In this document: in pieces, positions 16,123 to 40,700 of the stretch
Position numbering within the stretch: the first letter of the stretch is position 1
Layout: every line of letters begins with the position of its first letter
Virus record (IMG/VR): IMGVR_UViG_3300007344_000034
Span: 1-57,495 of that record
DNA: 57,495 bases
Reading direction: 5' to 3' (one strand)
Origin: a virus
Lineage: Duplodnaviria; Caudoviricetes
The notes under the pieces: generated by a model
Seen by the model: the letters and a program-made list of their open reading frames with translations, nothing else
Databases searched by the model: none
Told to the model about the DNA's origin: nothing
Translations under genes and position numbers: made by a program

Positions 16123-16348
16123 GGTAGGGGGGTACTTCTATATATGGAGTGCATGCCAACCGGGCGTAGAAAAGAAGGGGGGTGGGGGTATGTTTTAGAC
16201 AGTGTCTAAAGAAGGGGTAAGGCTTTGTCAAAATTGCTCATCTAATGTGCATATTATTATTACTACGTAGCTGCTATGTAACTAATGCTGCCAGCGGGGG
16301 GTAGGGGGGCGGCATATCGCGCCCAAATCAACTAAAAACCCCCACCCC
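16123..16348. repeat. G-tract boxes and palindrome between terS and early genes (candidate packaging/terminus region)
   Basis: GGTAGGGGGG at 16123 and 16300; GGGGTGGGGGT (16179-16189) is inverted at 16338-16348; perfect palindrome TTTAGACA-G-TGTCTAAA at 16194-16210. Confidence 0.5.
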
Positions 16349-16350
16349 AG

Positions 16351-16387
16351 AGCAGAATCGTACTTCTGTACCACAATTAGAGATAAT
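16351..16387 (+). promoter_or_regulatory. Early promoter, 37-bp repeat copy 1
   Basis: AGCAGAATCGTACTTCTGTACCACAATTAGAGATAAT; -10-like GATAAT; near-identical to 17073 and 17964. Confidence 0.7.
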
Positions 16388-16436
16388 GGAATCGTTCCAT
16401 AGGGGAACACAACTAAAAGAGGTAACCAAGAACGTT

Positions 16437-16673
16437 ATGCAATTATTTGTATTCGTTATTTCATGGGTGTCAGGCATCTGCCTGATGGGTTCAGGTCTAC
16501 TGGTGGCGTGGGCATCACACACCGTAACAGCTACGTCATTCACCGGTCCAGTGCTTGGTGGGTTACTAGCAATCATCGGGTTCGTACTTGTGATGCTAGG
16601 CATCAACGCATACGAGCAATGGCAAGCCAAACGAAAGCTACGCGATCTGCGTAGCTGGGGAGGTCGGTCATGA
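16437..16673 (+). CDS. Early two-TM membrane protein
   Basis: Start moved to ATG 16437 behind RBS AGAGGTAACC (16418); two hydrophobic helices and a basic tail. Confidence 0.7.
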   Translation: MQLFVFVISWVSGICLMGSGLLVAWASHTVTATSFTGPVLGGLLAIIGFVLVMLGINAYEQWQAKRKLRDLRSWGGRS

Positions 16674-16969
16674 AGACGCTCAAGACACAGATCGATCTAT
16701 TCGACGATGGCATCATCAAGTTGGCATCACAAATGGCTGTCCGATACTTCCATGTGTTCATGGAGTTAAAGACAATGTGGGATCAAGCACCGCAGGTATG
16801 TGACGACGATCACAAGAAGCAAATGCATCGTGCAGACATTCAGTTCCAAGAATACTCACGGATGTCTGGATGTGATCCCTTCCAACTACTGAAGCACGCG
16901 GCGAAGAACAACTTGCTACCAAGCGATGATGTATTCGCCTACTTGTACATGTACAAGTATTCAGACTGA
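16670..16969 (+). CDS. Hypothetical early protein
   Basis: 99 aa, GGAGGT RBS, ATGA overlap, followed by a hairpin. Confidence 0.7.
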   Translation: MKTLKTQIDLFDDGIIKLASQMAVRYFHVFMELKTMWDQAPQVCDDDHKKQMHRADIQFQEYSRMSGCDPFQLLKHAAKNNLLPSDDVFAYLYMYKYSD

Positions 16970-16976
16970 GTCAATC

Positions 16977-16996
16977 GGCTCCCCTTCGGGGGAGCC
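16977..16996 (+). terminator. Stable hairpin ending cassette 1 (no U-tract)
   Basis: GGCTCCCC-TTCG-GGGGAGCC, 8 nt after the stop codon. Confidence 0.6.
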
Positions 16997-17001
16997 ATTG
17001 A

Positions 17002-17028
17002 TGATAGTTATACGTACTGCGCCGAGCC
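17002..17028. repeat. Bipartite box TGAYAGTTA-N6-CTGCGYYGAGCY, copy 1
   Basis: TGATAGTTA-TACGTA-CTGCGCCGAGCC. Confidence 0.85.
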
Positions 17029-17048
17029 GCCGCCGCGTCTAGGGGTCG

Positions 17049-17066
17049 GACTAACATTTGTTAGTC
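17049..17066. repeat. 18-bp palindrome copy 1
   Basis: GACTAACATTTGTTAGTC, 6 bp upstream of the promoter repeat. Confidence 0.9.
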
Positions 17067-17072
17067 TGATGG

Positions 17073-17109
17073 AGCGGAATCGTATTTATGTATCACAATT
17101 AGAGACAAT
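17073..17109 (+). promoter_or_regulatory. Early promoter, 37-bp repeat copy 2
   Basis: AGCGGAATCGTATTTATGTATCACAATTAGAGACAAT. Confidence 0.7.
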
Positions 17110-17161
17110 ACACACATCGAAGCAATCCCGCTTCGGTGTTCCATAAAAGAGGTAATCACTC

Positions 17162-17812
17162 ATGGAAAATCAAACTAAAGTCGTTGCCGACTCAAAGGCT
17201 ACTAGCGTCCCTTCAATGAACACTGTTATTGCGGAGCTTGAAGGCTTCGCTTCCAAAGCGGTAGATTTTGACACCGCCGCCGAATCAGTGTCGGTAACCT
17301 TGCTCGAATACTTTGGTTATCAGTTCAACACTGAAAAGACGAAGGTTCTGGAAGCGTCAAAGAAAGATGCTTACCCATGGTTCAATCAAGTAGGGGACGC
17401 TATCCAGAAAGCGACCGACGACAATGGCAAAGATCTTCGTAAGTTCCGCGACACTTTATATCTAGCGTTGCATGTGCAAGCGAAGGCGAAGGCTAAAGCG
17501 ATCAACCCGTCCATCACTGATGAAGCCTTGAAGAAGGTTAAATACACGAACCCTTCAAACCGGTTCGACCAAATCAAAAGTGTGGCCAAAGGGATTGTCG
17601 AAGGTTCCCGCCGACTAGGTAAGCGCGGTGCTGACCGCACTGTAACTGAACTTGCATTGCGGGATTGTCACCCTGCATGGGCGCGGCTTGCAAAGCTCGA
17701 AGAACTCACTGACCGCGAAATGAAGATCATGAAAGCACTTGACGCTGTTATCCGCGCATGTGGACACGATCCTCAGAAGGTTGATCTGAAAGCTCTAGGC
17801 TTGAAGAAGTAA
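17162..17812 (+). CDS. Early protein of unknown function (paralog A)
   Basis: 216 aa, RBS AGAGGTAAT; shares NPS...KG.VEG.R.LGK...GHDPQKVDL..LGLKK with 18044..18610. Confidence 0.85.
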   Translation: MENQTKVVADSKATSVPSMNTVIAELEGFASKAVDFDTAAESVSVTLLEYFGYQFNTEKTKVLEASKKDAYPWFNQVGDAIQKATDDNGKDLRKFRDTLYLALHVQAKAKAKAINPSITDEALKKVKYTNPSNRFDQIKSVAKGIVEGSRRLGKRGADRTVTELALRDCHPAWARLAKLEELTDREMKIMKALDAVIRACGHDPQKVDLKALGLKK

Positions 17813-17819
17813 CCACAAG

Positions 17820-17845
17820 GCGACCCTTCGGGGTCGCTTTTTTTT
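17820..17845 (+). terminator. Rho-independent terminator
   Basis: GCGACCC-TTCG-GGGTCGC followed by T8. Confidence 0.92.
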
Positions 17846-17860
17846 GGCCAAAAATTTTGA

Positions 17861-17919
17861 TGATAGTTATCTCCTCTGCGTTGAGCTGTTGATGATAGTT
17901 AGACGTTCTGCGCCGAGCC
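17861..17919. repeat. Bipartite box copies 2 and 3
   Basis: TGATAGTTA-TCTCCT-CTGCGTTGAGCT (17861) and TGATAGTTA-GACGTT-CTGCGCCGAGCC (17893). Confidence 0.85.
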
Positions 17920-17940
17920 CCCTGCGCCCGCCATCGGTCA

Positions 17941-17958
17941 GACTAACTTTTGTTAGTC
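17941..17958. repeat. 18-bp palindrome copy 2
   Basis: GACTAACTTTTGTTAGTC, 5 bp upstream of the promoter repeat. Confidence 0.9.
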
Positions 17959-17963
17959 CGATG

Positions 17964-18000
17964 AGCAGAATCGTATTTATGTACCACAAATAGAGATAAT
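17964..18000 (+). promoter_or_regulatory. Early promoter, 37-bp repeat copy 3
   Basis: AGCAGAATCGTATTTATGTACCACAAATAGAGATAAT. Confidence 0.7.
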
Positions 18001-18043
18001 GGACTCGTCCAATCAAGGACATAACTAAACAGGAGTTTCCAAA

Positions 18044-18610
18044 GTGGAAAACTTAAATGATGTTGTGGCTAACACAAAAAAGCCAACTGCCAAGGCAGTA
18101 CAGGATGCACTCGTTGCTAACGCAGAGATTGCAGTTTCATCAACTCTTTCAGATGAGGACACCGCGAAAATCCTTAATCTGTTCTACGGTTGCAAGGACA
18201 AGGCATCTGGCTTCAAGTGGTATGAAGTCAAAAATGCCAAGGACTCAACCAAGGAAAAGGAAAAGGAATTGTGGGTTAAATTCCAGAATCCTTACTACAA
18301 GGCATTGCGGACTGCGTTCAAAACCAAGACCGGCAAGGACTTGTCTAATCCTTCCACTTACTGGCTTAGGATTAAGAACGCAGGCAAGGGGCTCGTTGAG
18401 GGCACTCGCAAACTTGGCAAGGGCGCGGACAAGACGCCAGAGGATAGGCTGTTAATTGCAACGTATCCGCGTTGGGCAGAGTATGCTCGTCTTGAGGAGC
18501 CTACCCACCGTCAGGCAGAGATCCAGGATCTCTTGTCTCAACTGATCTTCAAGATCGGACACGATCCACAAAAAGTGGATCTGGTTAAACTGGGGCTCAA
18601 GAAGTCCTAA
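18044..18610 (+). CDS. Early protein of unknown function (paralog B)
   Basis: 188 aa, GTG start, AGGAG RBS; paralog of 17162..17812. Confidence 0.85.
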   Translation: MENLNDVVANTKKPTAKAVQDALVANAEIAVSSTLSDEDTAKILNLFYGCKDKASGFKWYEVKNAKDSTKEKEKELWVKFQNPYYKALRTAFKTKTGKDLSNPSTYWLRIKNAGKGLVEGTRKLGKGADKTPEDRLLIATYPRWAEYARLEEPTHRQAEIQDLLSQLIFKIGHDPQKVDLVKLGLKKS

Positions 18611-18617
18611 CCACACG

Positions 18618-18644
18618 GGCAGACCTTCAGGTCTGCCTTTTTTT
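18618..18644 (+). terminator. Rho-independent terminator
   Basis: GGCAGACC-TTCA-GGTCTGCC followed by T7. Confidence 0.92.
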
Positions 18645-18660
18645 CGCCCGTCATCTACGA

Positions 18661-18726
18661 TGACAGTTACATCCTCTGCGTTGAGCCATGCACCTAGTGT
18701 GATAGTTACACGACCTGCGTTGAGCC
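18661..18726. repeat. Bipartite box copies 4 and 5
   Basis: TGACAGTTA-CATCCT-CTGCGTTGAGCC (18661) and TGATAGTTA-CACGAC-CTGCGTTGAGCC (18700). Confidence 0.85.
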
Positions 18727-18749
18727 ACTGAAGCTGCGGTGACCCATCG

Positions 18750-18767
18750 GACTAACATTTGTTAGGC
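18750..18767. repeat. 18-bp palindrome copy 3
   Basis: GACTAACATTTGTTAGGC, just left of the origin candidate. Confidence 0.9.
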
Positions 18768-18787
18768 TAACCCTAAAAATACAACTT

Positions 18788-19110
18788 TGTACCACATTGT
18801 AGTATTGTTGTAAAACCACTTTTGTATTGTTATACGCTAAGTTATTGATTTTTAAGTAAAGTATGCTTTGTTGTATTGTTGCGTTTTAAAAACGCTATTT
18901 ATAGAGATTCCAAAGAGTGCCCTCATGCAGATGCAAATCGCAAGAATCTGTCTAGAGGAAACTTATTTATTTAAAAATAAAACAATACAACAATACACCC
19001 ATTTTCACCCCTCAACACCGCGTCGTTACTCGGTTTTGCATTGTTGTATTTTTTTACAACATTAAGACCGTTTTTACAACTTTACAACAATACCCATTAT
19101 TTTGTAATAC
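18788..19110. other. Candidate replication origin (AT-rich, inverted iterons, IHF site)
   Basis: GTATTGTT at 18802, 18824, 18873; inverted AACAATAC at 18981, 18989, 19086; TTTACAAC three times; exact IHF consensus WATCAANNNNTTR on the minus strand at 18838-18850. Confidence 0.6.
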
Positions 19111-19118
19111 ATAAAAAC

Positions 19119-19147
19119 TTGACTTTTATGTAACTTTGTGGTACAAT
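19119..19147 (+). promoter_or_regulatory. Sigma70 promoter with extended -10
   Basis: TTGACT-17 bp-TACAAT, with TGn before the -10. Confidence 0.85.
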
Positions 19148-19189
19148 ATAAAAATGGGGCGAGATGTGTATGTACTCAGCACCCCATCT

Positions 19190-19207
19190 GCCTAACAAAT
19201 GTTAGTC
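19190..19207. repeat. 18-bp palindrome copy 4
   Basis: GCCTAACAAATGTTAGTC in the 5'UTR of 19236. Confidence 0.9.
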
Positions 19208-19235
19208 AGACCATTAACAATACGAGGTAACTAAT

Positions 19236-19514
19236 ATGTCTATGTCACGTGACGCGCAACGCCTGTTGCGTCAGAAAGCATGGTTCGATAAGAACGGCAA
19301 CGAACACTCACGCCTAATGGCGCAGTACATCTTCATGCAAATGCAGTTGTTGACTGAACACCCACCACAGCGTGGCTCTTACCGCTTCTATGCAAACAAC
19401 AACCCGATGCATCGTGCTATCAAAGCGCATCTTGGTTTCGATGTTGTTGATCCCGCGTGGATGAACAGAGTCACTGATGAAATCGCAGACTCTAGTGCAA
19501 AGCACATTAACTGA
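19236..19514 (+). CDS. Hypothetical early protein
   Basis: 92 aa; RBS GAGGTAACT. Confidence 0.75.
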   Translation: MSMSRDAQRLLRQKAWFDKNGNEHSRLMAQYIFMQMQLLTEHPPQRGSYRFYANNNPMHRAIKAHLGFDVVDPAWMNRVTDEIADSSAKHIN

Positions 19515-19517
19515 GGA

Positions 19518-19535
19518 GCCTAACAAATGTTAGTC
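19518..19535. repeat. 18-bp palindrome copy 5 (contains ATG 19527)
   Basis: GCCTAACAAATGTTAGTC. Confidence 0.9.
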
Positions 19536-19736
19536 AGATGTGTTGAGTGTGACGAACCGATCACACCAGTTAAGCGTGCAGAGCTTGGCTACACCATGTG
19601 TTTATCATGCGGCGATAAGCAGGCTCGGGCTACCGTTCGTACAGTAGCTCCAATGCACAAGAGCAACTACATGTTGTTCACCAATCTCGATGACCTGAAA
19701 GGCATCAACAATAAAGGAGGCTTTCACCGTGAGTGA
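19527..19736 (+). CDS. C4 zinc-finger protein (DksA/TraR-like finger)
   Basis: CVECDEPI...R...G...CLSC; GAGGAG RBS. Confidence 0.65.
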   Translation: MLVRCVECDEPITPVKRAELGYTMCLSCGDKQARATVRTVAPMHKSNYMLFTNLDDLKGINNKGGFHRE

Positions 19737-19977
19737 AATAAAGAAAATGAAGATATTAAAGAATGAAAAAGTTCCAACTCGCGGTTGGAGCAAGATTGAA
19801 AAGATAATTGATGGTATGGATTTCGATGATTGTGCGGAGTTTGATACCGAGCAAGAGGCGCAAGCCTTTTACTCAGCGGCCAAGCGATTGGTTTACCGCA
19901 AAAACAGCGAGTTTGACGTAGTGAAGAGACGCAAACGTGTATGGAAAGTAGCGAAGGAGTCAAACGATGAGGCATAA
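19729..19977 (+). CDS. Small hypothetical protein, possibly DNA-binding
   Basis: 82 aa, AGGAGG RBS, basic C-terminal KRRKRVWKV; loosely resembles 37485..37679. Confidence 0.65.
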   Translation: MSEIKKMKILKNEKVPTRGWSKIEKIIDGMDFDDCAEFDTEQEAQAFYSAAKRLVYRKNSEFDVVKRRKRVWKVAKESNDEA

Positions 19978-20152
19978 ATTGGAGAACATGGGACAGCTTG
20001 TCTACAACAAAGAGACAGCAGAGGGCGAGATCAACATACCTGAGATTCAATATGACCAAGTGGGGTTAGACATACTCCACGATTGGATCTCTGACTTGCA
20101 AGCGTTATACGACGAGATCAATGAGGAGGTTCGTGGTGAACTACGAAGATGA
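19967..20152 (+). CDS. Small acidic hypothetical protein
   Basis: 61 aa; RBS AAGGAGTCAA. Confidence 0.65.
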   Translation: MRHKLENMGQLVYNKETAEGEINIPEIQYDQVGLDILHDWISDLQALYDEINEEVRGELRR

Positions 20153-20393
20153 GTACGACGAGTACGACGAGACTAGCGGGGGTATTGATTTACGCACGCA
20201 GTTAGATTGCGCCTTGCGGATAATGACGAAAGCACAAGTGGATAACTGGCATACGCAGTTAGAAGTGATTCAACTGCAATGTGAGTTGACCGATGCGAGG
20301 CGGGCTATCCAAAGTCGTGAGTATGCGATAGAGCAACTGCAACAGCAGTTAGACACAGCGCAGACATTGTTGCGAGGAGAAACAAGTGAGTGA
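20136..20393 (+). CDS. Hypothetical coiled-coil protein
   Basis: Start moved to GTG 20136 behind GAGGAGG. Confidence 0.6.
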   Translation: MNYEDEYDEYDETSGGIDLRTQLDCALRIMTKAQVDNWHTQLEVIQLQCELTDARRAIQSREYAIEQLQQQLDTAQTLLRGETSE

Positions 20394-20589
20394 TCTAAAC
20401 GAGCAAGCGGAAGCAGTCCGCAGACTGAACGATGAGCAACTTGGCGATTTGTTTGAGGTGCTTCATTGGGTGGCGTATTGCCCTGATATTGAGTACATGG
20501 TTCCGCCATATATCGGGCGCAAAGCGCTGAATTTACTTAGAGACAAACAACAGGAGATAGAGAGTAATGCACAAGTCAAAACCAAGTAA
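20386..20589 (+). CDS. Hypothetical protein
   Basis: 67 aa, GAGGAG RBS, GTG start. Confidence 0.6.
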   Translation: MSDLNEQAEAVRRLNDEQLGDLFEVLHWVAYCPDIEYMVPPYIGRKALNLLRDKQQEIESNAQVKTK

Positions 20590-20728
20590 GCACAACCTAG
20601 TGCTTGATCGCCAGAAGGCGAAGGAGTTCATGCGTAAGCGTGAAGAATTGAAACAGAAGCGACTAACAAATGTTAGGGAGACCGACAATGGCAAAAATGT
20701 GGATAGCACCAGACGGGAGATGGAGTAG
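20567..20728 (+). CDS. Small basic hypothetical protein, 53 aa
   Basis: Not in ORF track. MHKSKPSKHNLVLDRQKAKEFMRKREELKQKRLTNVRETD...; AGGAG upstream; fills the gap between neighbours. Confidence 0.45.
   Translation: MHKSKPSKHNLVLDRQKAKEFMRKREELKQKRLTNVRETDNGKNVDSTRREME
20661..20678. repeat. 18-bp palindrome copy 6 (overlaps RBS/start of next gene)
   Basis: GACTAACAAATGTTAGGG. Confidence 0.85.
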
Positions 20729-21659
20729 AGCTATGTTCAAGTGTAATGCGTTTCCTCTGTTAGATACCTATATGAAGGCTCTAACACACGAGGAGCAAGT
20801 CGTGCCTATCCGAGGCACAAACCAGAAGCCAATACATATGCGCTCGCGCAAGTATATGCAGATCGCGGTGTTGCCCAACGAAGACGTTGTGTATTTCGAT
20901 GGTTGGGGCACGAAAGGTGAGCCAGTCAATGACAATGACTACATTGTTAAGTGGAAGCCGAATGGTGAGATCCACATCAACGCGCCCATGTACAACTGCG
21001 TGTACGAGCAACTGACTAGCCTGTTAGGTGTAAAGTTCTTCCGAGCTACGAACCTGTTGTGGGTATATATGGATGACGCACTACCGCTACGTCGCTATAC
21101 GGGAGGCACGCCTACGATACTGAAGTGGAAGGATGACCGCCTTGTGTATACGAACCCGCCAGAGGTAACGCAAAAAGCGATTAACCGAGGTGTCGCCAAG
21201 GCGGTGCGTGCAAAGTACAAGAGCATCTATGACTACTTGCGTGGCATGACCAAGGTGCGCGATAGCGTGTACGAGTACAGCGAGTTTATTGATGCGTTCG
21301 ATTTTAAAGCTGATGAACAGTATAGGCAGTTTAATAACAATGCGTATTTCACACTGCACCGCCTGATGCCGAAGATCTCGCTATATGTATCGTTGCCAAA
21401 GCAAGACGACATCGTGGAGTTGATCGGTATGGCTAACGAAGGAGACCTAACTGCATCGCATAAGCTGTGGCTGATATGTGCGTGGAGTAATGGTGGCCAT
21501 AGAAGTTGGCACAGCGAGAATGTGGTGTGTGCGCCTAACCAAGTAATCAAAGCGTTCGATGACTTTATCTTACGCATACATAGAGAGGAGGTTTTCTACG
21601 ATAAAGAAGTGCCTATGGGCAAATTACCAAGCACAGCGAATGAAAAGTTCTTCCGCTGA
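20688..21659 (+). CDS. Hypothetical early protein
   Basis: ~323 aa; ATG 20688 behind AGGGAG (alternative start 20670). Confidence 0.75.
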   Translation: MAKMWIAPDGRWSRAMFKCNAFPLLDTYMKALTHEEQVVPIRGTNQKPIHMRSRKYMQIAVLPNEDVVYFDGWGTKGEPVNDNDYIVKWKPNGEIHINAPMYNCVYEQLTSLLGVKFFRATNLLWVYMDDALPLRRYTGGTPTILKWKDDRLVYTNPPEVTQKAINRGVAKAVRAKYKSIYDYLRGMTKVRDSVYEYSEFIDAFDFKADEQYRQFNNNAYFTLHRLMPKISLYVSLPKQDDIVELIGMANEGDLTASHKLWLICAWSNGGHRSWHSENVVCAPNQVIKAFDDFILRIHREEVFYDKEVPMGKLPSTANEKFFR

Positions 21660-21663
21660 AAAC

Positions 21664-21692
21664 TTGACACAAGACTATAATTGTGGTACAAT
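21664..21692 (+). promoter_or_regulatory. Sigma70 promoter with extended -10
   Basis: TTGACA-17 bp-TACAAT with TGn; shares TTGTGGTACAATATA with the 19119 promoter. Confidence 0.88.
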
Positions 21693-21734
21693 ATACACAC
21701 TGGCGCGGAATGAAGCATTTAGCCAGTGGGGTCG

Positions 21735-21752
21735 CACTAACATTTGTTAGTC
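21735..21752. repeat. 18-bp palindrome copy 7
   Basis: CACTAACATTTGTTAGTC in the 5'UTR of the AAA ATPase. Confidence 0.9.
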
Positions 21753-21789
21753 AGACCATTAACAACTATTACATTAGAGGTAACTAAAA

Positions 21790-22854
21790 ATGTCTATTAA
21801 CTTTGGAACTACCGTTTCTTTGAAGCAAGCGGCTAACCTTATCACTAACTCACCAGAGCTAAGATACTTCTTGCAGGGTGAACCTGGGATCGGTAAGTCG
21901 TCCATCATGAAGCTGATCGGTAACAGCAAGCCCGATCACATCAAGTCCTACATGGACTGCTCACAGCTTGACCTTGGTGACATTGCGATGCCATACGTGG
22001 ACAAGGAGCAGGGCATTACGACTTACTACCCTAACGGTAGATTTGGTATGCACACACAAGAGCCAGTGCTGATGATGCTTGACGAGTTCACCAAAGCGGC
22101 TGAGCCAGTTAAGAATATGTTGCATCCGCTGCTAGAGTCGTCTAACCCGCGCCTTGGAGATATTCCAGTACACCCAGAGTCGATCATATTCCTCACGGGT
22201 AACCTGAGTACGGACGGTGTTGGCGATGTTCTCAAAGCGCATACCCGCAATCGTATTATTCCGCTAAACGTAAGGAAGCCTAGCTCCGATGAGTGGCTAG
22301 AGTGGGCGGTGAACAACGACATTGAACCAATCGTCATGTCGTGGGTGCATCAGTTCCCCCATGCGCTAGCGTCATACACTGAGGAAGGACAAGCCGAGAA
22401 CCCGTACATCTTCAACCCGAAGAAAGTACAGACCGCGTTTGTATCGCCTCGATCCTTGGAGCGAGCCTCGCACATACTGAAGCAACGCGAACATCTGGAC
22501 GCTGAGTCGCTTATAGCTGCTCTAACAGGTGCTATTGGCGAAGCCGGTGCGCGTGATATGCAAGCCTATGTCGAGTATCAGGATCAGCTACCAACGTGGG
22601 ACTCGATCATCAAGTCGCCTGAGTCGGCCACTGTACCTGACAGCGTAGGTGCTTGTGCCGTGCTTGTGTTTGGTGCGATCACCAAGGTGGATAAAAACAA
22701 TATGCCTATGTTCATGAAGTACCTAGAGCGTTTCGCTTCTGAGTGGCAAGCGTGCTTTGCAATCAACATTGCGAAGAATCCACAGAAACAATCGGTTGCA
22801 TTTAGTTCATCAGCGTTTGCTGACTGGGTGCAGAAGAACGAGGACTTACTATGA
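21790..22854 (+). CDS. MoxR-like AAA+ ATPase
   Basis: Walker A GEPGIGKS, Walker B MLDEF, TGN sensor, SPRS. Confidence 0.9.
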   Translation: MSINFGTTVSLKQAANLITNSPELRYFLQGEPGIGKSSIMKLIGNSKPDHIKSYMDCSQLDLGDIAMPYVDKEQGITTYYPNGRFGMHTQEPVLMMLDEFTKAAEPVKNMLHPLLESSNPRLGDIPVHPESIIFLTGNLSTDGVGDVLKAHTRNRIIPLNVRKPSSDEWLEWAVNNDIEPIVMSWVHQFPHALASYTEEGQAENPYIFNPKKVQTAFVSPRSLERASHILKQREHLDAESLIAALTGAIGEAGARDMQAYVEYQDQLPTWDSIIKSPESATVPDSVGACAVLVFGAITKVDKNNMPMFMKYLERFASEWQACFAINIAKNPQKQSVAFSSSAFADWVQKNEDLL

Positions 22855-22994
22855 GAGACGAAGAAGTAGTTGAGTTGGCGTTCGACATACTAGAGGACGC
22901 AGAACTAATGCAGGAGTTTGACGACACTGTGTGGATCAGTGTTGACAAGACTCTGTGGGAACAATTCACAACAGGTGGGACTAACAAATGTTAG
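22851..22994 (+). CDS. 47-aa highly acidic protein
   Basis: Not in ORF track. MRDEEVVELAFDILEDAELMQEFDDTVWISVDKTLWEQFTTGGTNKC; GAGGA RBS; ATGA overlap. Confidence 0.7.
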   Translation: MRDEEVVELAFDILEDAELMQEFDDTVWISVDKTLWEQFTTGGTNKC

Positions 22995-22996
22995 AC
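22979..22996. repeat. 18-bp palindrome copy 8 (contains ATG 22988 and TAG 22992)
   Basis: GACTAACAAATGTTAGAC. Confidence 0.9.
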
Positions 22997-24199
22997 AGAT
23001 CTAAGATTGAACGACGGGTGAAGAAAGCCAAGATCACCCTTATGCGTAAGCCAGAATTTGCAATGTGGTCTGGCATCATGATGGTAGGCAAGACCGAAGT
23101 GCGTGATGACTTCCCAACTGCCGCGACCAACGGGCGTGACGAGATATACGGCACAGAGTTTGTGGACTCTCTCAATGACAAGGAACTTATGTTCGTTGTG
23201 CTACACGAGAACCTACACAAAGCGTTCCGTCATCTCTACATCTGGCGCAAGTTGCACGAAGAAAATTCACGGCTGGCAAATATGGCTTGTGACTACGTGA
23301 TTAACCTGATCCTGCATGACGCTGATCCATCGGAGCAGACGATTGCTATGCCTCGCAAGGACGGTGAGATATACGGGTTGTTGGATACACGGTTCCGGCA
23401 CATGAACACTAAACAAGTGTTCGACCTACTGAAGCAGGAGCAAGAAGAAGGTAAGGGACAGTCCGGAGACAGCGAAGGCGAGTCCGGTGGCTTTGACGAG
23501 CATGACTGGGACGGAGCGCAGGAACTCGATGCTGAACAGCAGGAGCAACTAGCGAAGGAAGTCGATCAGGCATTACGTCAGGGTCAGATGGCCGCCCAAA
23601 AGATAGCGGGCAAGGGCGCGGGCAATATGCCACGCGAGCTAGGAGACTTACTTGCACCCAAAGTCGATTGGCGCGAAGTGCTACGGGAGTTTGTGAACTC
23701 TGTGTGTAGTGCGAAAGACGCAAGCAGTTGGCGACGAGTCAACCGTAGGTTCGTTGGTCAGCACATCTATCTACCCTCACTGATCGGTGAGAAGGTGGGT
23801 CACGTTGTGGTTGGCATCGACACATCGGGTTCGATACAGCAAGACGAGATCACGCGGTTCTTATCCGAGGTTAAGTCTATTGTAGAAGATGTACACCCCG
23901 ACAAGCTCGACCTGATCTACTGGGATCACGAGGTTGCGAGCCATGAGGTGTATGACTCAGCCACTATGGGTACGTTGCTAGACTCAACCAAGCCTAGAGG
24001 CGGGGGAGGAACATCGCCTACCTGTGTGATGGAGTATCTCAAGCAGGAGAACATCAAGCCCGAGTGCATCATCATGCTAACTGATGGCTACATCTACGAC
24101 TGGGGTAACGAGTGGGACTCGCCTACATTGTGGGTGATTACGTCCGATCATACATCGCCTGTGGGTAAGTCAGTACAGATAACGGAGGAAGCGGCATGA
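22988..24199 (+). CDS. DUF2201-type metallopeptidase + vWA domain protein
   Basis: TAATNG, HENLH (HExxH), N.A.D..IN, MIDAS DTSGS, GGGGT, LTDG. Confidence 0.9.
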   Translation: MLDRSKIERRVKKAKITLMRKPEFAMWSGIMMVGKTEVRDDFPTAATNGRDEIYGTEFVDSLNDKELMFVVLHENLHKAFRHLYIWRKLHEENSRLANMACDYVINLILHDADPSEQTIAMPRKDGEIYGLLDTRFRHMNTKQVFDLLKQEQEEGKGQSGDSEGESGGFDEHDWDGAQELDAEQQEQLAKEVDQALRQGQMAAQKIAGKGAGNMPRELGDLLAPKVDWREVLREFVNSVCSAKDASSWRRVNRRFVGQHIYLPSLIGEKVGHVVVGIDTSGSIQQDEITRFLSEVKSIVEDVHPDKLDLIYWDHEVASHEVYDSATMGTLLDSTKPRGGGGTSPTCVMEYLKQENIKPECIIMLTDGYIYDWGNEWDSPTLWVITSDHTSPVGKSVQITEEAA

Positions 24200-24438
24200 G
24201 GTTTCTATTCGAGATTGGCTACAAGTCATATGTACTTGATGCCGACCAAGCGCAGATTATCTGGGACACGATACGTGACGCGGAGATACATGAGGAGAAG
24301 CACGATGGATACGGAGATGATCGTACAACTACGTACCACGTGTACTCTCAAGATCTGTTGGGCGAACCTGTTCATATGAAGATGCTGACGGATCGTCAGT
24401 ACAACATGGCTAAGTTAGCCGGTAAACCAAAGAAGTAG
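24196..24438 (+). CDS. Hypothetical protein
   Basis: 80 aa, GGAGGA RBS, ATGA overlap. Confidence 0.7.
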   Translation: MRFLFEIGYKSYVLDADQAQIIWDTIRDAEIHEEKHDGYGDDRTTTYHVYSQDLLGEPVHMKMLTDRQYNMAKLAGKPKK

Positions 24439-24456
24439 GACTAACATTTGTTAGTC
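24439..24456. repeat. 18-bp palindrome copy 9
   Basis: GACTAACATTTGTTAGTC directly after the stop codon at 24438. Confidence 0.9.
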
Positions 24457-24484
24457 CGACCTACAACAATAGAGGTAACTAAAG

Positions 24485-25336
24485 ATGAGTATTACAGCAA
24501 GAGCATTACTTGTAGAGCATAGCATTTCAGTTTGGACTGCTAACAAACTGGACAAACACGCTACTGACGTAGTGATAACGCAGAATTGTGCGGCAGACAA
24601 AGCCGCCCAAGTTCGCAAGAACCTGATGGCAGGGTCAAGCCAACGGAAAGACATAGCCGATTTCGCGGCAGGTTGTCGCTTGTGGCACAACGTTAAAACG
24701 TTGCCGTGGGCAAACAGTGGCGCACGTATGCTACCGACCTCGATGTTCCTAGACTACAAGCAGGAGCTTAACGACCGTAAAGCGAAGTTCGACAGTATGG
24801 TGTCGCAGTTCCTAATTGACTACCCACAACTGGTGCAGATCAGTCAGAACTACTTGGGTTCGCTGTTCAACGCAGATGACTACCCGAGCGTGGAGGAGGT
24901 AGCTGATAAGTTCGCTTACAGATACGTCATTAGCCCTGTGCCTGACTCCGGTCACTTTGTGCTTGACGTAGCAAGTGAGGAGATGAACGAGCTACGCGAG
25001 CAATACGAGAAGGACTTCAACACACGGGTGAACGATGCGATGAAGGACGCATGGACACGGCTACACAAGACGCTCACGGGTATGAGCGAGAAGCTGACCG
25101 ATGCACCGGACGAGAAGAAACGCAGGTTCCACGATACGTTTATCACCAACGCGCAGGAGATGTGCGGTCTGCTCAGTCACTTGAACGTGAACAACGACCC
25201 AGACTTGGAGTCAGCTAGACGCCAACTGGAAGTGGCTCTAATGGCTACTGACGTAGATGTAATCAAGGCTTCCGAGTACGCCCGGGGTGAGCTTAAATCG
25301 AAGGTAGATAACGTACTAGGACAATTTGAGTGGTGA
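24485..25336 (+). CDS. DUF3150-like helical protein
   Basis: 283 aa; TLPW...G.RMLP, F...YP...LG.LF...DYP motifs; usual neighbour of AAA/vWA genes. Confidence 0.65.
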   Translation: MSITARALLVEHSISVWTANKLDKHATDVVITQNCAADKAAQVRKNLMAGSSQRKDIADFAAGCRLWHNVKTLPWANSGARMLPTSMFLDYKQELNDRKAKFDSMVSQFLIDYPQLVQISQNYLGSLFNADDYPSVEEVADKFAYRYVISPVPDSGHFVLDVASEEMNELREQYEKDFNTRVNDAMKDAWTRLHKTLTGMSEKLTDAPDEKKRRFHDTFITNAQEMCGLLSHLNVNNDPDLESARRQLEVALMATDVDVIKASEYARGELKSKVDNVLGQFEW

Positions 25337-26214
25337 GTAATATGTCAGATATGCAAGATACACAATTCATGCGCCCGAATATGTTCGTACGAACGGGTAG
25401 CATAGACATAGATAAAGTAGAGATGCCTACGTTCTGGGAGCCAGTAATCGTCTGGCTTGCAGACAAGTTTCCAAAGTGGAAGTTTGTGGGTTCTCACTTA
25501 ACCCAATCGGAAGCATCGCGCGTGAAGGAGCGAGAGGAGTGGAAGTGGTATCCGCGTAGGTGGACTGTGTACCTAGACGGTGAGGAGCTAGGCACAATCG
25601 GCATGGACTACTACGGCCACAAGAAGTGTTACGCGATCAGCAATGACCGCATCGGAAACAAACGTGAGCGTGGTTGGGCTGATAAGACTACCAAGATCGA
25701 GCAAGCCAAGAAGATCATTATGAAGAACTTCAGGCCGAAGGATCTGAAAGAGCTAACGACTGAGTGCGTAAACACAGTGCGTCGCAACGTAACATCCAAT
25801 GTGTATGCGTCAGCTAGCACTTACTCAAGGCTACTACAACGACTAGCGCAGTACCTTGCTGCTGACTTGGAAAGTAACTTGGATACATATATGCAAATAG
25901 CCAGAAGAGCCGGTTATACCGAGGAGCAAGAGTTCAAAGAGGCTATTGAAACAAGCAAGATTCACAGGAGCATGGACAAATGCACGCAAGAAAACAAAGG
26001 GGCGGTTGTTCTGATTCATGGGGACACGTATGCCGTACAAACCGACGACGGCCAGTTCTACACGTACGAAAATGCTACACTACCCGACTTGCTAAAACGC
26101 AGGGTCGGTATGTTGAAGCTATTGGACAACGAGCAAACGCTAATTAACGTCGGCTACCGTGAGAACGAAAACCAATACTATGTCAGCTTGGAGGAAGATA
26201 ATGGAGCAACCTAA
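25330..26214 (+). CDS. Hypothetical protein
   Basis: ~290 aa long ORF; true start may be 25342. Confidence 0.75.
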   Translation: MVSNMSDMQDTQFMRPNMFVRTGSIDIDKVEMPTFWEPVIVWLADKFPKWKFVGSHLTQSEASRVKEREEWKWYPRRWTVYLDGEELGTIGMDYYGHKKCYAISNDRIGNKRERGWADKTTKIEQAKKIIMKNFRPKDLKELTTECVNTVRRNVTSNVYASASTYSRLLQRLAQYLAADLESNLDTYMQIARRAGYTEEQEFKEAIETSKIHRSMDKCTQENKGAVVLIHGDTYAVQTDDGQFYTYENATLPDLLKRRVGMLKLLDNEQTLINVGYRENENQYYVSLEEDNGAT

Positions 26215-26362
26215 ACGCACAAGGGGGAAGCAGAAAGCGCCTACGCTTGTACACGTAAATCTGCGAGTCCCTCAAGAAGTTTTGGACTACTATAAACAGT
26301 GGCCGAGCTATACCAAAATGATGCGAACCGTACTTACGAATTACGCTGAATCGCAAAAGTAA
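26201..26362 (+). CDS. BrnA-antitoxin-like ribbon-helix-helix protein
   Basis: Start ATG 26201 behind GGAGGA; RGKQKAPTLVHVNLRVPQEVLDYYKQWPSYTKMMRTVL matches the BrnA pattern. Confidence 0.7.
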   Translation: MEQPKRTRGKQKAPTLVHVNLRVPQEVLDYYKQWPSYTKMMRTVLTNYAESQK

Positions 26363-26366
26363 TATG

Positions 26367-26391
26367 AAGCCCCGCTAGTCGGGGCTTTTTT
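26367..26391 (+). terminator. Rho-independent terminator ending the early operon
   Basis: AAGCCCCG-CTAGT-CGGGGCTT followed by TTTT. Confidence 0.88.
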
Positions 26392-26414
26392 ACGCCTGTA
26401 CGACAAAGGGGTAG

Positions 26415-26432
26415 GACTAACAAATGTTAGTC
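26415..26432. repeat. 18-bp palindrome copy 10
   Basis: GACTAACAAATGTTAGTC, 20 bp upstream of a TTGACA. Confidence 0.9.
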
Positions 26433-26452
26433 TGATCCCCCAGAAAAAATGT

Positions 26453-26481
26453 TTGACATTGCCAAAAATGACAGTTACCGT
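26453..26481 (+). promoter_or_regulatory. Sigma70 promoter of replication operon
   Basis: TTGACA-17 bp-TACCGT; ATG 26488 falls at the predicted +1. Confidence 0.65.
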
Positions 26482-37692: not shown

Positions 37693-37787
37693 CACGAAAC
37701 TTGAGGCAGTGTTCACTGTTGCTTTTTCGTGGTTACCTCTAAGGGTTGACTCCCTAAGCTGTGCCCCGCCTTGTGCGGGGTTTTTTT
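37693..37787 (+). ncRNA. Candidate trans-acting anti-RBS small RNA (~95 nt)
   Basis: Promoter-like TTTACG-18-TACAGT (37658-37687); 5' stem CACGAAA/TTTCGTG; unpaired GTTACCTCT; hairpin AGGG-TTGACT-CCCT; terminator. Seed is complementary to the RBS of plus-strand genes. Confidence 0.65.
37764..37787 (+). terminator. Rho-independent terminator at the convergence point
   Basis: CCCCGC-CTTGT-GCGGGG followed by T7, overlapping the stop codon of 37786..45021. Confidence 0.88.
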
Positions 37788-40700
37788 AATAGAACGAATA
37801 GTCCATACGACTCATGTTAATGGCGTCCCGCATTATTGGACTAATAGATACCCCATCAAACATTTCTGCAGAAGCCTTAATATGCTGCTTCATTGATTTA
37901 TCTAAGGTCTCCCCATCTATCGCTGCGTATGGATGCCGGTCGTTGTAGTCTAGTATTTCGTCTATAGCATCTGACATAGCGTCTAGATCCCCCGCACGAG
38001 CCGCGATGTAATACTTACGTAACAGCTTAGTACGTGTTGTGGTAACGGCTTTTTCTATGCGCTTATCCCGCAAATTACGTTCTTGCCGCGCTGTGTATTC
38101 AGCAGGTGGGAAGCCAAGAAGCTGAGCAGCTAGTTCACCGTGCGTCATGTCAGCATAAATGGGGTCGCCCCGACGAGTATATATACCGTCATCTTTTTGG
38201 TAACGCCCTATGGGCATAGCTTTGTAAGCATTTGATATAGCAGCGGGTAGCATATTTTCTATACCGCGTTCGATATTGCCCTCTTGGAGATCAGCCACCC
38301 CACGTGCGAACCGCTTACCCACACTTAGAGCAGGGCCACCCAGATAGAACAATAAATTTTCTTCTGGAGACGCATTAGTGTTGTATCTATTCTCTTGGAT
38401 AACAAGTCCTGTTAGCCGTACGCGACTAGCTACATCAAGCCCAGTAAGTTCGTTTAGTGGGCCTTTGAAATAAAATTCACCTATAGCTTTACGCACTACG
38501 GTGTCAAAATCATCTTCGTCTTCGTCAGCAAATGTGTTGTACGCAAGTGCTATGGCTCCGTATATAGGGATACCGTATACCCCTGCAAACAAAGCTGCCG
38601 ATCCATGCAAACCTACCAATTGCTTAAACGCCACGTTACGTTTTCGTTTAGTTTCCGCATCGGAACCCGGATACATGCCTTTCAGTAGGTCGCGTAAGGC
38701 CATAAACATCGTGGTATACATACGCACGCCGAAGCCTTTGTACATACCCGCTACACGCCCCACGTTTTGATTTGTATAACGCATGCCGGTTTCGATGACA
38801 GTTCCACCGTTAACCATTTGAGTTTTTTCGATAGCTTCTTCAATAGCTCGTTTTTTCACTACAGAGTCAGCCAGTTTACGATCTGCGGGACGAGCGTCGT
38901 TTAATTTCTTCTGGCGTTCAATAGCCATTTGATAAATAGCCATCAGCGTAACTTGACGGTTAAATCTTTCGCCGTGGTTGAACATAAACGCACTGAGTCC
39001 GGTAATCGTATCCAGTAGGTTCTTCTGCTCCCCCAGTGCTATAACGTCTGCTATGTAAGTCTGGTTTAACAAACCACGCCCGGAGGCTTCTTGAACTACA
39101 GGCGCTAGTTCCTCTAACAGCGCTCTCTGCCTAGCATCGGTTACAGTATCCATTACTGCAAAGTTACCTTGCTCATCTAGGGTGTAGTAGCTTTCTATAT
39201 TGTTTTTGAACACCCCTACTTGGTTCATAGCCTTACGTATAGCACCATATGCATTAGTGTATCCGTAGTCTGCCCCCAGATAAGGGAATGCAAACAACGG
39301 CACTTGTGACATATTCACCAAATAAGAAGACACGTTAAACCCGATAGTGAATAAGAAAGCGGACTGGTTAAGAGTCTTAGCTATTTCTTCTGCGCCCTTA
39401 AATCTTGCGCCTTCTCTAGCAAAGTTAATACGATCATTAAGCTCTCGGGTTACAACCCGTATAGAATCGTGATACTTTCTTTGCGCTCTTCTAGGGTTAC
39501 GTGACCCCGCTATTTCGATCATGCGCTGCATATACTCTACGGTAAGATTATTAGCCCGAGCTATGTCGTACAACGTAGAATTAGGGTTTCTTTCTATTAA
39601 GGCTTGCACTTGTTGATAAGTAGGTAGCGCAAAATTGTTTATAGTATTTTGATAAGCATTTAGCTCTTTAACCGCTTGCATACGCACGACTTGGCGCCCG
39701 AACTCAAAGGCGCGATTTTTAAGCGCTAGCAGTGAATTTGCTTCATAACCTAGTGTTCCCTTACGTTTTTGTAAGGACCGCGCAATAGCTGTTTGCGGTA
39801 GAGCATTTACAAATGTACGCAATACCTGTTCGCGCAAAGCTCTACCAGCCTCACCGCTGGTCTCTGGGTTGTTATTTAACGCTGTAAGCAAGGCGTTAAC
39901 AAAAGAAGATGGTGGGGACTCTTTAGCTACTTGCTCCATAGACCCAGAATCATCGGTACTAAAGGACTCGTTAATCACCGTTGGGTCGTTTGAAAGCTCT
40001 AATATAGCTCGTTCACGTTGTTTGTCAGTTTCAAAAAACCTTACAACATAGGGTTCCACACCTCTTTCGACTGAATTAGGGTCTAGATTGTAGGAAAGCA
40101 TGAACTTACCTACACGTTCTAATGGAAAGTAAACTTCTAACGTGTCTTGCTCGGCTAGTAACCTACTTATGAGCGTCTGCCGTACGCTAGCATCTTGGTC
40201 ACCGGGCATTATGTCTTTGAAAGTGGCTTGTATTATTTCCAACATTGATTTGCGTTGGTCAGAATAAAACTTGCGTAACCGGTTAAACATCTGTTGTCCG
40301 TTTACACCGCCTTTACCTACATCTCTGCCTATTTGATTCCATACTCGTTGCAAGTCATCCCATACATCGCCTAAATCTGTTACGTCATCCTTTGCCAGTT
40401 TCCCAGCATATTCAGACCTAGGTTTATTGGGGTCTATTTGGAAGATAGTTGCGCCAAATTCGCTGCTGTAAACAACAGCGTTAAATCTAGCTTCCGCCTG
40501 TGGGCCTACAGAATCAAACCACTCAGCAAGATTATCTACTTCGTCCTGAACTGCTTGATCTGATTTAACAAGCCTAGCGCGTTGAGTTTCAATGGAGCGC
40601 TGTACTTTAAACCCGGTCCTACCCATACCAAGCGCTTCGTATATTTGACTAACTGTAAGTAAATCAGCGGCACCAAGTAGTGTGCGTTGAGCAAACAGTC

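Follow-up and report, generated by a model that had tools for sequence, protein, structure and literature searches.

Introduction

Accounts of operators and stoperators in Cluster A mycobacteriophages (L5, Bxb1, TipsytheTRex) describe many copies of a short site, some at promoters and most elsewhere, the latter thought to stop elongation (PMC6550527, PMC9283540). As portrayed in the sections of these sources that treat the sites, the stoperator is an asymmetric 13-bp sequence, distributed genome-wide and mostly in one orientation to transcription, and its reader is a monomeric two-domain repressor of temperate phages (PMC6550527, PMC9283540). The sections of the first source that compare the sites place them mostly at gene boundaries and report a group-specific consensus that correlates with repressor distance (PMC6550527). 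Here we describe an array of ten palindromic sites in the early region of an uncultured freshwater virus of the Caudoviricetes (Duplodnaviria), IMG/VR record IMGVR_UViG_3300007344_000034. The window analyzed is the entire record, a linear sequence of 57,495 bp that CheckV rates as 92% complete. From comparison of sequences, the array is best read as a set of lineage-specific palindromic DNA operators controlling the early region, for which the reader we name is a candidate only.

The array resembles the Cluster A sites, so far as those sections describe them, in its many copies of a short site (10 in the window, 3-23 in relatives), in occupying both promoter and non-promoter positions, and in a consensus that varies between related phages at syntenic places. 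Unlike the Cluster A sites, those of the array are palindromic and without orientation, as the central bases and mirror-symmetric variants discussed below indicate, and they are confined to 9-11 kb in the window and in six near-complete relatives. Neither an integrase nor a Cluster A-type repressor was found among the 67 open reading frames (ORFs) scanned with Pfam and/or PHROGs in this record, no search for an L5-type repressor having been made. Cluster A sites are tied to lysogeny. Because they are also asymmetric, oriented and genome-wide, the array falls outside Cluster A on three tested features. The Cluster A operator/stoperator system is nevertheless, as an analogue, the closest known system.

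Two further systems are, in our comparison, functional analogues: the KorA/KorB operators and the rudivirus/Aca8 sequence. Papers on the IncP plasmid RK2 describe, in the portions relevant here, KorB as a ParB-family clamp and KorA as a helix-turn-helix dimer, both with palindromic operators (PMC11790492, PMC4889941, PMC2665229). The likeness to this system, as so described, lies in identical palindromic operators across one replicon, at, upstream of and far from promoters, and would extend to the co-ordinated silencing of many operons; the differences are that the array belongs to a phage early region and not to a plasmid, and that half-site order differs. No ParB-like domain was found in 37 ORFs searched with Pfam or 67 searched with PHROGs, a search that could miss distant homologs. 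In the archaeal rudiviruses, the relevant sections of one source describe a virus-specific regulatory sequence before most early or anti-defence genes, and a small DNA-binding protein, Aca8, which has the same sequence at its own gene and is proposed to effect shut-off; the flanking regulatory sequences differ between viruses (PMC11065993). The repeat described there contains the promoter and precedes single genes, whereas the sites described here are separate from promoters and occur also within operons and within genes.

Results

Ten palindromes confined to the early region

An 18-bp palindrome, in degenerate form GACTAACAWWTGTTAGTC, has three exact matches in the window (sites 1, 9 and 10 in Table 1). 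Allowing up to three mismatches gives exactly ten matches, where 100 shuffles gave a mean of 0.05 and a maximum of 1. These are the ten copies listed in the preliminary description, and together they span 9.4 kb of the 57.5-kb window. The 14-bp core CTAACAWWTGTTAG is exact in nine of the ten, the exception being site 2, which has T for A at core position 6, in the centre. At two mismatches the core finds one further match, at 22522, which is probably a chance match (3.09 expected). Dyad symmetry reaches about 28 bp in most copies, in the form G-N-TC-N-GACTAACA-WW-TGTTAGTC-N-GA-N-C, and the plus-strand centre reads ATTT or TTTT in five sites and AAAT in the other five.

A search of the 57,495-bp record found no further copies outside the ten sites, and the reversed-pattern control gave 0. 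Since the window is the whole record, the earlier observation that the palindrome is confined to the early region, with no copy noticed elsewhere, is valid for all the sequence of this record. The contexts do differ as had been described, including promoters, a candidate origin, transcript leaders and start codons. At site 6 an in-frame ATG at 20688 has a better ribosome-binding site (RBS) and may be the true start. We rejected the explanation that the motif is a mere stop-start junction cassette, with TAA, TGA or TAG and an ATG inside it: relatives keep the dyad symmetry, not the codons.

The array across relatives

No cultured relative was found: a megablast search with the region matched none of 50,697 phage records. 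A tblastn search with the ATPase encoded at 21790 gave only relatives below 60% identity, the rows listed lying at about 24-27%; distant homologs of this ATPase are annotated 'N4 gp24-like'. IMG/VR, however, contains 554 stretches encoding relatives of the DUF2201/VWA protein (hereafter the VWA protein) that begins at site 8. We took 80 of these loci, each with 10 kb on either side, making 81 with the window.

A palindrome family of at least three copies surrounds the VWA gene in 77 of the 81 loci, the window included, with 3-23 copies in relatives. The commonest type is CTAACA-N-TGTTAG. The window's own type, CTAACA-NN-TGTTAG, is found also in L190, L111, L119, L124 and others; a 16-mer search of IMG/VR, which returned 106 stretches with mostly single matches, had pointed to the L190 contig. 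Other types are CTAACATGTTAG, CTGACA-NN-TGTCAG, GTTACA-W-TGTAAC and TTAACA-NN-TGTTAA, and further ones are ATAATGTC-N-GACATTAT, TAGTGAC-NN-GTCACTA and CGACA-N4-TGTCG, among others. Five near-complete relatives (52-66 kb) have 12-15 copies each in a single 9-11 kb stretch, with reversed-pattern controls of 0; the only outliers are two copies, both in one of the five genomes. Across six near-complete relatives the array is confined to one such stretch bar those two copies. Terminal repeats occur on the contigs of four relatives; such repeats usually reflect circular assembly and not physical ends, and they were for this reason rejected as evidence on the earlier suggestion that the palindromes mark first-injected DNA.

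Two relatives depart from the common pattern. L189, with 21.2 kb around the VWA gene, is well covered and has neither an array nor a homolog of the candidate reader discussed below; the entire system may have been lost there naturally, or an asymmetric motif may have taken its place. L155 carries the 16-bp palindrome CGTGGGAATTCCCACG at 90-105 and 1201-1216 (positions in the leader of the ATPase gene and 5' of the VWA gene), as well as two CTAACA-type sites, at 811 and 2712, so that two palindrome systems may coexist in one phage.

In some relatives that are only about 60% identical, the ATPase and VWA genes have palindromes at matching codons, within conserved peptide motifs. These in-gene copies form three sets: L119:9024, L118:4769, L164:7990 and L129:8654; L164:7590 and L118:4369; and L164:9377, L118:6257, L129:10942 and L113:10962. 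The window lacks them.

Positions 16500-26480 of the window are nearly complete in many freshwater and estuary metagenome runs from several studies. Four metatranscriptome runs contain about 5% of the sampled words, from small pieces of this region or of close relatives, and placing the runs on the region gives short contigs only, at a depth of 2-5, with no starts, ends or joints listed.

Replacement of the palindrome in place

A further comparison is with a close relative, L143, a complete genome of 61.7 kb. Most proteins shared with the window are 79-94% identical, yet its palindrome is a different one, GTTACAWTGTAAC, present in 12 copies (8 exact, 4 with one mismatch), all 12 within 10 kb. 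The genomes of three other relatives contain zero copies of it. When sites were paired by eye, using the flanking genes, the L143 copies paired with all ten window positions (Table 1). The positions are kept while the sequence is rewritten, which points to a trans-acting reader that co-evolves with its sites. Replacement in place appears to fit a co-evolving, phage-encoded reader better than a host factor. On this and the evidence below, we consider the ten palindromes probable double-stranded DNA operators for a sequence-specific, twofold-symmetric regulator encoded by the phage.

Half-sites on double-stranded DNA or hairpins in RNA

Site statistics were computed for 478 distinct TAACA-N(0-2)-TGTTA sites in relatives, and mismatch statistics for 126 one-mismatch copies from 60 loci. 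Among sites with a one-base spacer outside start codons, the centre base is A in 145, T in 139, and G or C in 11. Such equal use of A and T would be expected of a base pair on the dyad, as opposed to a loop base read on one strand. Two-base centres are AA in 49, TT in 34, AT in 16 and TA in 1; the avoidance of G/C and of the TA step would fit read-out of DNA shape.

The main competing account is that the palindromes act as hairpins in early transcripts (stem CUAAC/GUUAG, loop of 3-4 nt), where they would be processed or would dock a translational repressor. Examples of repressors that cover ribosome-binding sites and start codons on their targets are RNA-phage coat proteins and T4 RegA, and every site does lie on the sense side of one transcribed arm. 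The substitution patterns, however, are not those of an RNA stem. The one-mismatch copies show no G:U signature, with 4 G:T or T:G against 8 A:C or C:A combinations. Their commonest variants, a mirror pair at the outermost position (A..G in 30, C..T in 37), break the pairing there. Among the 478 sites, mismatched A..G and C..T together (69) exceed A-T (20) at the outer arm position, and just outside the 6-bp arms Watson-Crick combinations number 135 where 134.5 are expected. Without pairing past the arms, the stems of many relatives would have only 4-5 A/U-rich pairs.

Location points the same way. Of the 27 loci that have the first early gene, 23 have their first site in the divergent intergenic region ahead of it, no more than about 160 bp away, and in most relatives this site precedes the first early promoter; four of the ten window sites lie behind terminator-like hairpins. 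Such DNA is not transcribed from the early promoters. Inside genes lie 166 of the 478 sites, one third, some of them at identical ATPase or VWA codons in several relatives, and such sites would suit roadblocks, not translation signals.

Several observations weigh against reading the sites as rigid DNA operators and are easier to accommodate as RNA. The spacer between half-sites is 0, 1 or 2 bases across relatives and is mixed within genomes: L119 has 11 sites with a two-base and 6 with a one-base spacer, and L118 has 9 and 4. Variation of this kind is unusual for a rigid dimer and tolerable for a hairpin loop. A start codon is exactly central in 90 of the 478 sites, and a further 112 sit a median of 22 nt upstream of one. 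As RNA, six of the ten window sites form stable hairpins (-8.6 to -18.1 kcal/mol, z <= -3.4); the three start-codon sites are among the four weak folders. The start-codon copies may simply mark the cheapest spot to embed a palindrome that contains ATG. The RNA alternative, raised in the preliminary description, is thus weakened by the comparative evidence while the long palindromes of the window retain the capacity to fold, and we regard it as unlikely. Strand symmetry and the associated features probably favour half-sites read on double-stranded DNA over RNA hairpins.

A structural role for the DNA itself, either as extruded hairpins that serve as promoters for an N4-type virion RNA polymerase or as parS-like replication or partition signals near the origin-like region, appears improbable. 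The early promoters of coliphage N4 have stems of 5-7 bp and 3-nt loops, are directional, and are used by an RNA polymerase carried in the virion. Stem and loop sizes are indeed similar here, the ATPase has the N4 gp24-like distant homologs mentioned above, a virion-type protein of 2411 aa is encoded, many of the relatives' sites precede start codons by 10-22 nt, and site 3 borders iterons. Yet no RNA polymerase or ParB-like domain was detected in the 67 scanned ORFs or in the giant protein. For an N4-type virion RNA polymerase in particular, the 2411-aa protein has no Pfam match and its PHROG matches are to unknown and DarB-like families, no fold search having been made. Strong sigma-70-type promoters already serve the region. 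Nor do the sites behave as the directional upstream elements of N4: they lack strand orientation, and those centred on start codons (90 of 478) or lying in genes (166 of 478) cannot be promoters of those genes, so hairpin promoters of this type were rejected. Mobile palindromes (REP/RAYT or MITE-like) were rejected too, as positions are syntenic between relatives and no transposase was found in the Pfam and PHROGs scans of the ORFs.

Candidate readers

If the sites are operators for a phage protein, the best candidate for their reader is a small ribbon-helix-helix (RHH) type protein encoded at 26201-26362, at the end of the site-bearing region; we put this assignment forward tentatively, as one that may well be wrong. 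The RHH repressors Arc and Mnt of P22, MetJ, CopG and omega of pSM19035 have about 50-60 residues, with an N-terminal strand followed by two helices. They bind short repeats as dimers or dimers of dimers, with sub-sites whose layout and spacing differ from one member to another. During lytic growth of P22, Arc turns off an early function. These repressors have one or few operators, unlike the 10-23 sites here, some of which lie in coding sequence.

Homologs of the window's protein were found in 50 of the 81 sequences, the L190 copy being 89% identical to it. In 32 aligned members Arg8, Gly9, Arg22, Arg42 and Leu45 are invariant. Nine of the 32 match Pfam BrnA_antitoxin (best E 3.3e-7), which we take to be an RHH family, and two match RHH_1. 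The array closes at this gene: in 50 loci only 0-2 sites lie past its stop, though up to 7.8 kb follows, and in 13 loci the next site is no more than 15 nt past the stop. Co-occurrence was assessed in the 49 loci with at least 6 kb downstream of the VWA gene. An RHH homolog is present in 40, of which 39 have an array and one, L155, has no called array. Another eight have an array and no RHH homolog, all with unrelated palindromes, and L189 has neither. Some of these have another gene beside the last site instead: the TTAACA group has one for a helix-turn-helix protein (HTH_28, E 1.2e-5), and L145/L150 and L156 have small ORFs that look strand-helix-helix by eye and have no Pfam match. By manual count, the RHH proteins of the window and L143 differ at 9 of the first 23 residues (the N-terminal arm and strand), against 6 of the last 30.

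Several observations do not favour this protein. The window's own copy has no Pfam RHH match at E up to 1, so its likeness to the fold derives from the Pfam matches of its relatives and not from its own score. Sequence and profile searches against the PDB gave nothing significant, returning none of the RHH repressors named above, and Foldseek found no match in the PDB. The monomer model (predicted local distance difference test, pLDDT, 82.7) has two helices, at 25-31 and 37-52, behind an N-terminal segment that is extended but in which no strand was called. The strand residues presumed to face the DNA vary widely under a single half-site, CTAACA (H/N, N/S, C/S, Y/P, I/S). Conversely, the pair C/S accompanies CTGACA in L122 and CTAACA in L130, and the pair H/N accompanies a spacer of 2 in the window and of 1 in L160. 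The L155 protein has the window's H/N/R residues, but CGTGGGAATTCCCACG stands at two regulatory positions of that phage. Changes of motif class number 11 on the RHH tree and 11-12 on four other gene trees (40 taxa; 14.5 with shuffling), and 6 on the tree of the first early protein as on those of the VWA protein and the ATPase (26 taxa). With equal counts, no gene tracks the motif better than the others. A crude comparison of same-class with different-class identity over all gene families produced no clear winner either.

There is a smaller, though real, chance that some other phage protein reads the sites. The second candidate is the first early protein, which the window encodes in two paralogs at 17162 and 18044. 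Its family occurs in 27 loci, in each of which the gene immediately follows the first site; it evolves fast and is often duplicated, each copy forming its own promoter-gene-terminator unit, and its members share the motifs HSNPS..W.RV and LG(V/I)DL. Identity of the window copies to their L190 and L111 counterparts is 34-50%, and to the L143 copies 15-17%. The model is confident and all-helical (pLDDT 86.4). Foldseek gave no meaningful match for it in the PDB, none was found in BFVD, a PDB profile search gave nothing useful, and against 48,161 representative chains (VIA-align) the best Z was 6.3, below the noise level for helical proteins. The first early protein may be a host-takeover or anti-defence protein.

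Among the candidates named in the preliminary description, only the RHH protein and these paralogs change with the motif, and the motif is tracked by them no better than by other genes. Three more were discarded. The helix-turn-helix protein 34409 is 87% identical in L190, which has the same motif, and 85% identical in L143, which has a different one; 37485 is equally conserved across the motif change (89% and 88%); and 19729 is absent from the same-motif relative L190 and from four other genomes searched. For 24485 and 25330 no PDB sequence match was found; the Atlas gives a weak DUF3150 lead for the former (12-17% of cluster members) and nothing for the latter. The earlier proposal of operator or stoperator-like sites for a dimeric phage protein is therefore borne out in part: strand symmetry, mirror-image half-site variants, sites upstream of the first promoter and the swap of the whole array support operators, while the reader is still a candidate.

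That a host protein reads the sites, a transcription factor or nucleoid protein that is exploited or titrated by decoys, with motif differences reflecting host differences, seems to us very improbable. It would account for the CTAACA half-site being common to phages whose candidate regulators differ strongly, and for the failure of any phage gene tree to fit the motif classes better than another. It would also require, between the closely similar window and L143, a host switch together with a complete rewrite of ten syntenic sites, and some 11 motif-class changes among 40 relatives fit co-evolution within the phage better. Promoter and stem-loop cassettes of T4-type phages have been proposed as substrates for shuffling. 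That the palindromes are likewise repeats for shuffling early-gene cassettes between phages, with no trans-acting reader, is the least credible alternative: the sites do lie at gene boundaries in a region of very variable gene content, but they are also kept inside conserved genes, and one uniform motif per phage with a different motif at the same places in close relatives would block exchange and implies selection by a reader.

Genomic setting

Early and replication genes lie on the plus strand, from about 16.4 to 37.7 kb, and the sites are confined to the first 9.4 kb of this arm. It encodes the zinc-finger protein, a MoxR-type ATPase, the VWA protein, a family-A DNA polymerase, an SNF2 helicase and a DUF927 primase-helicase. 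The remainder of the record, on the minus strand, is structural (terminase, portal, capsid, tail and the 2411-aa protein). The last of these, at 37786-45021, matches PHROG giant virion protein families over its C-terminal third, one of them annotated as DarB-like antirestriction. It has no Pfam domain, and a PDB sequence search gave only weak rows to cyanoglobin (E 0.04-0.05), none of them a polymerase.

The promoters at 19119 and 21664 are the two strongest sigma-70-type promoters in the region, near consensus, about 40-45 nt 5' of sites 4 and 7. Terminator-like sequences, hairpins followed by T runs, precede sites 1, 2, 3 and 10; those at 17817 and 18617 were called by the plus-strand scan, that at 26367-26387 on the minus strand only, and the one before site 1 was identified by visual inspection. 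A 51-nt promoter-like repeat, reading ..GAATCGTAYTT.TGTAYCACAA.TAGAGAYAAT.. with no recognizable -35 box, has three copies, at 16350-16400, 17072-17122 and 17963-18013. The last two directly follow sites 1 and 2; no palindrome precedes the copy at 16350, which stands before gene 16386, whereas most relatives have one ahead of their first promoter.

Between each terminator and sites 1-3 there are one or two copies of a second repeat (Table 1), and L143 has its own version, GATGACAGTTCC...AGCGGAAGC, at corresponding places; it may be another protein-binding element of the immediate-early units. The stretch 18780-19100, which may be a replication origin, is AT-rich, lacks a convincing ORF and contains several TTGTATTGTT-like iterons in both orientations; an equivalent stretch exists in L143. 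The divergent region between late and early genes is filled with G-rich runs such as GGGGTAGGGGGG, at 16150-16345 in the window, at L143:3440-3670, and upstream of the first site in L117, L119 and L190.

Table 1. Palindromic sites and associated features in the window, and palindrome copies in L143.
Feature	Position	Strand	Sequence or match	Context
Site 1	17049..17066		GACTAACATTTGTTAGTC, exact	after hairpin behind gene 16670-16969; abuts promoter-like repeat preceding gene 17162
Site 2	17941..17958		1 mismatch, central	between terminator 17817-17840 and promoter-like repeat preceding gene 18044
Site 3	18750..18767		1 mismatch	behind terminator 18617-18638, bordering AT-rich iteron region
Site 4	19190..19207		1 mismatch	about 43 nt 3' of -10 of promoter 19119-19147; ATG 19236 is 30 nt downstream
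Site 5	19518..19535		1 mismatch	central ATG 19527 is start of zinc-finger gene; GAGGAG 8 nt upstream
Site 6	20661..20678		2 mismatches	central ATG 20670 is first ATG of ORF 20670-21659
Site 7	21735..21752		1 mismatch	about 43 nt 3' of -10 of promoter 21664-21692; leader of ATPase gene 21790
Site 8	22979..22996		1 mismatch	central ATG 22988 starts DUF2201/VWA gene; TAG 22992-22994 ends ORF 22851
Site 9	24439..24456		exact	directly behind stop of 24196-24438; ATG 24485 is 29 nt downstream
Site 10	26415..26432		exact	last site; 53 nt past RHH gene stop, behind its terminator hairpin; TTGACA 20 nt downstream
First early protein, paralog A	17162..17812	+		216 aa; all-helical model; second candidate reader
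First early protein, paralog B	18044..18610	+		188 aa
RHH-type protein	26201..26362	+		53 aa; last gene of site-bearing region; candidate reader
Sigma-70-type promoter	19119..19147	+	TTGACT-17-TACAAT with TG	site 4 in its transcript leader
Sigma-70-type promoter	21664..21692	+	TTGACA-17-TACAAT with TG	site 7 in its transcript leader
Second repeat	16992-17036, 17851-17895, 17883-17927, 18690-18734		TGATGAYAGTTA-N7-CTGCGYYGAGCC	further copy near 18659-18686
L143 copy	3693			upstream of first early gene, copy A
L143 copy	4772			upstream of first early gene, copy B
L143 copies	5584, 5711			origin-like region
L143 copy	6146			leader behind strong promoter
L143 copy	6513			5' end of zinc-finger gene; palindrome within codons 5-9
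L143 copy	7751			upstream of 20670 homolog
L143 copy	8882			ATPase leader
L143 copy	9991			5' end of VWA gene; palindrome within codons 3-7
L143 copy	11641			upstream of 24485 homolog
L143 copies	13571, 13638			behind RHH gene

Discussion

We infer binding, the identity of the binder, and repression rather than activation from the arrangement and evolution of the sites. Read as operators, the sites would span the early transcription units, beginning at the promoters that serve the first early genes and ending at the terminator that follows the final one. Host RNA polymerase would start at the early promoters, and the regulator would be made from the early block itself, as its last product if it is the RHH protein. 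Once made, it would occupy all sites and so control the whole early block together. At sites 1, 2 and 10, beside promoters, it would hinder initiation; at sites 4-9, in leaders or between or within genes, it would act as a roadblock to elongation; and at site 3 it would act beside the origin-like region. The likeliest direction of control is that early transcription is shut off after the regulator has accumulated, as replication and late functions take over. Encoding an RHH regulator in the last gene of the block would amount to delayed negative feedback. In such a protein the near-universal ACA-W(1-2)-TGT centre could be recognized by the invariant strand arginine together with the invariant Arg-Gly in the basic N-terminal arm, and the outer triplets by the variable residues; flexible arms could tolerate one extra central base.

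A broader proposal is possible, and we offer it as speculation. Apparently lytic freshwater and estuarine phages might close their early region through one Arc-like protein, the product of the last early gene, that reads 10-23 spacing-tolerant palindromes, start codons and coding sequence included. The protein and its sites would have been rewritten as a pair repeatedly, in about 11 switches among 40 relatives, as a lytic counterpart of immunity groups. Were this so, related phages that infect the same cell would either be able or be unable to silence each other. The frequent rewriting suggests competition between related phages, a subject studied mainly in temperate phages.

If the sites are operators as proposed, a single switch controls the early genes throughout an abundant, uncultured family of phages, and it can be read from sequence alone. 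The array would then mark the limits of the early transcription block, and genes ahead of it would be flagged as immediate-early, with probable roles in host takeover or anti-defence. The family would also offer a natural series of matched protein-site pairs, with changes in both half-site and spacing, in which the evolution of DNA recognition could be followed.

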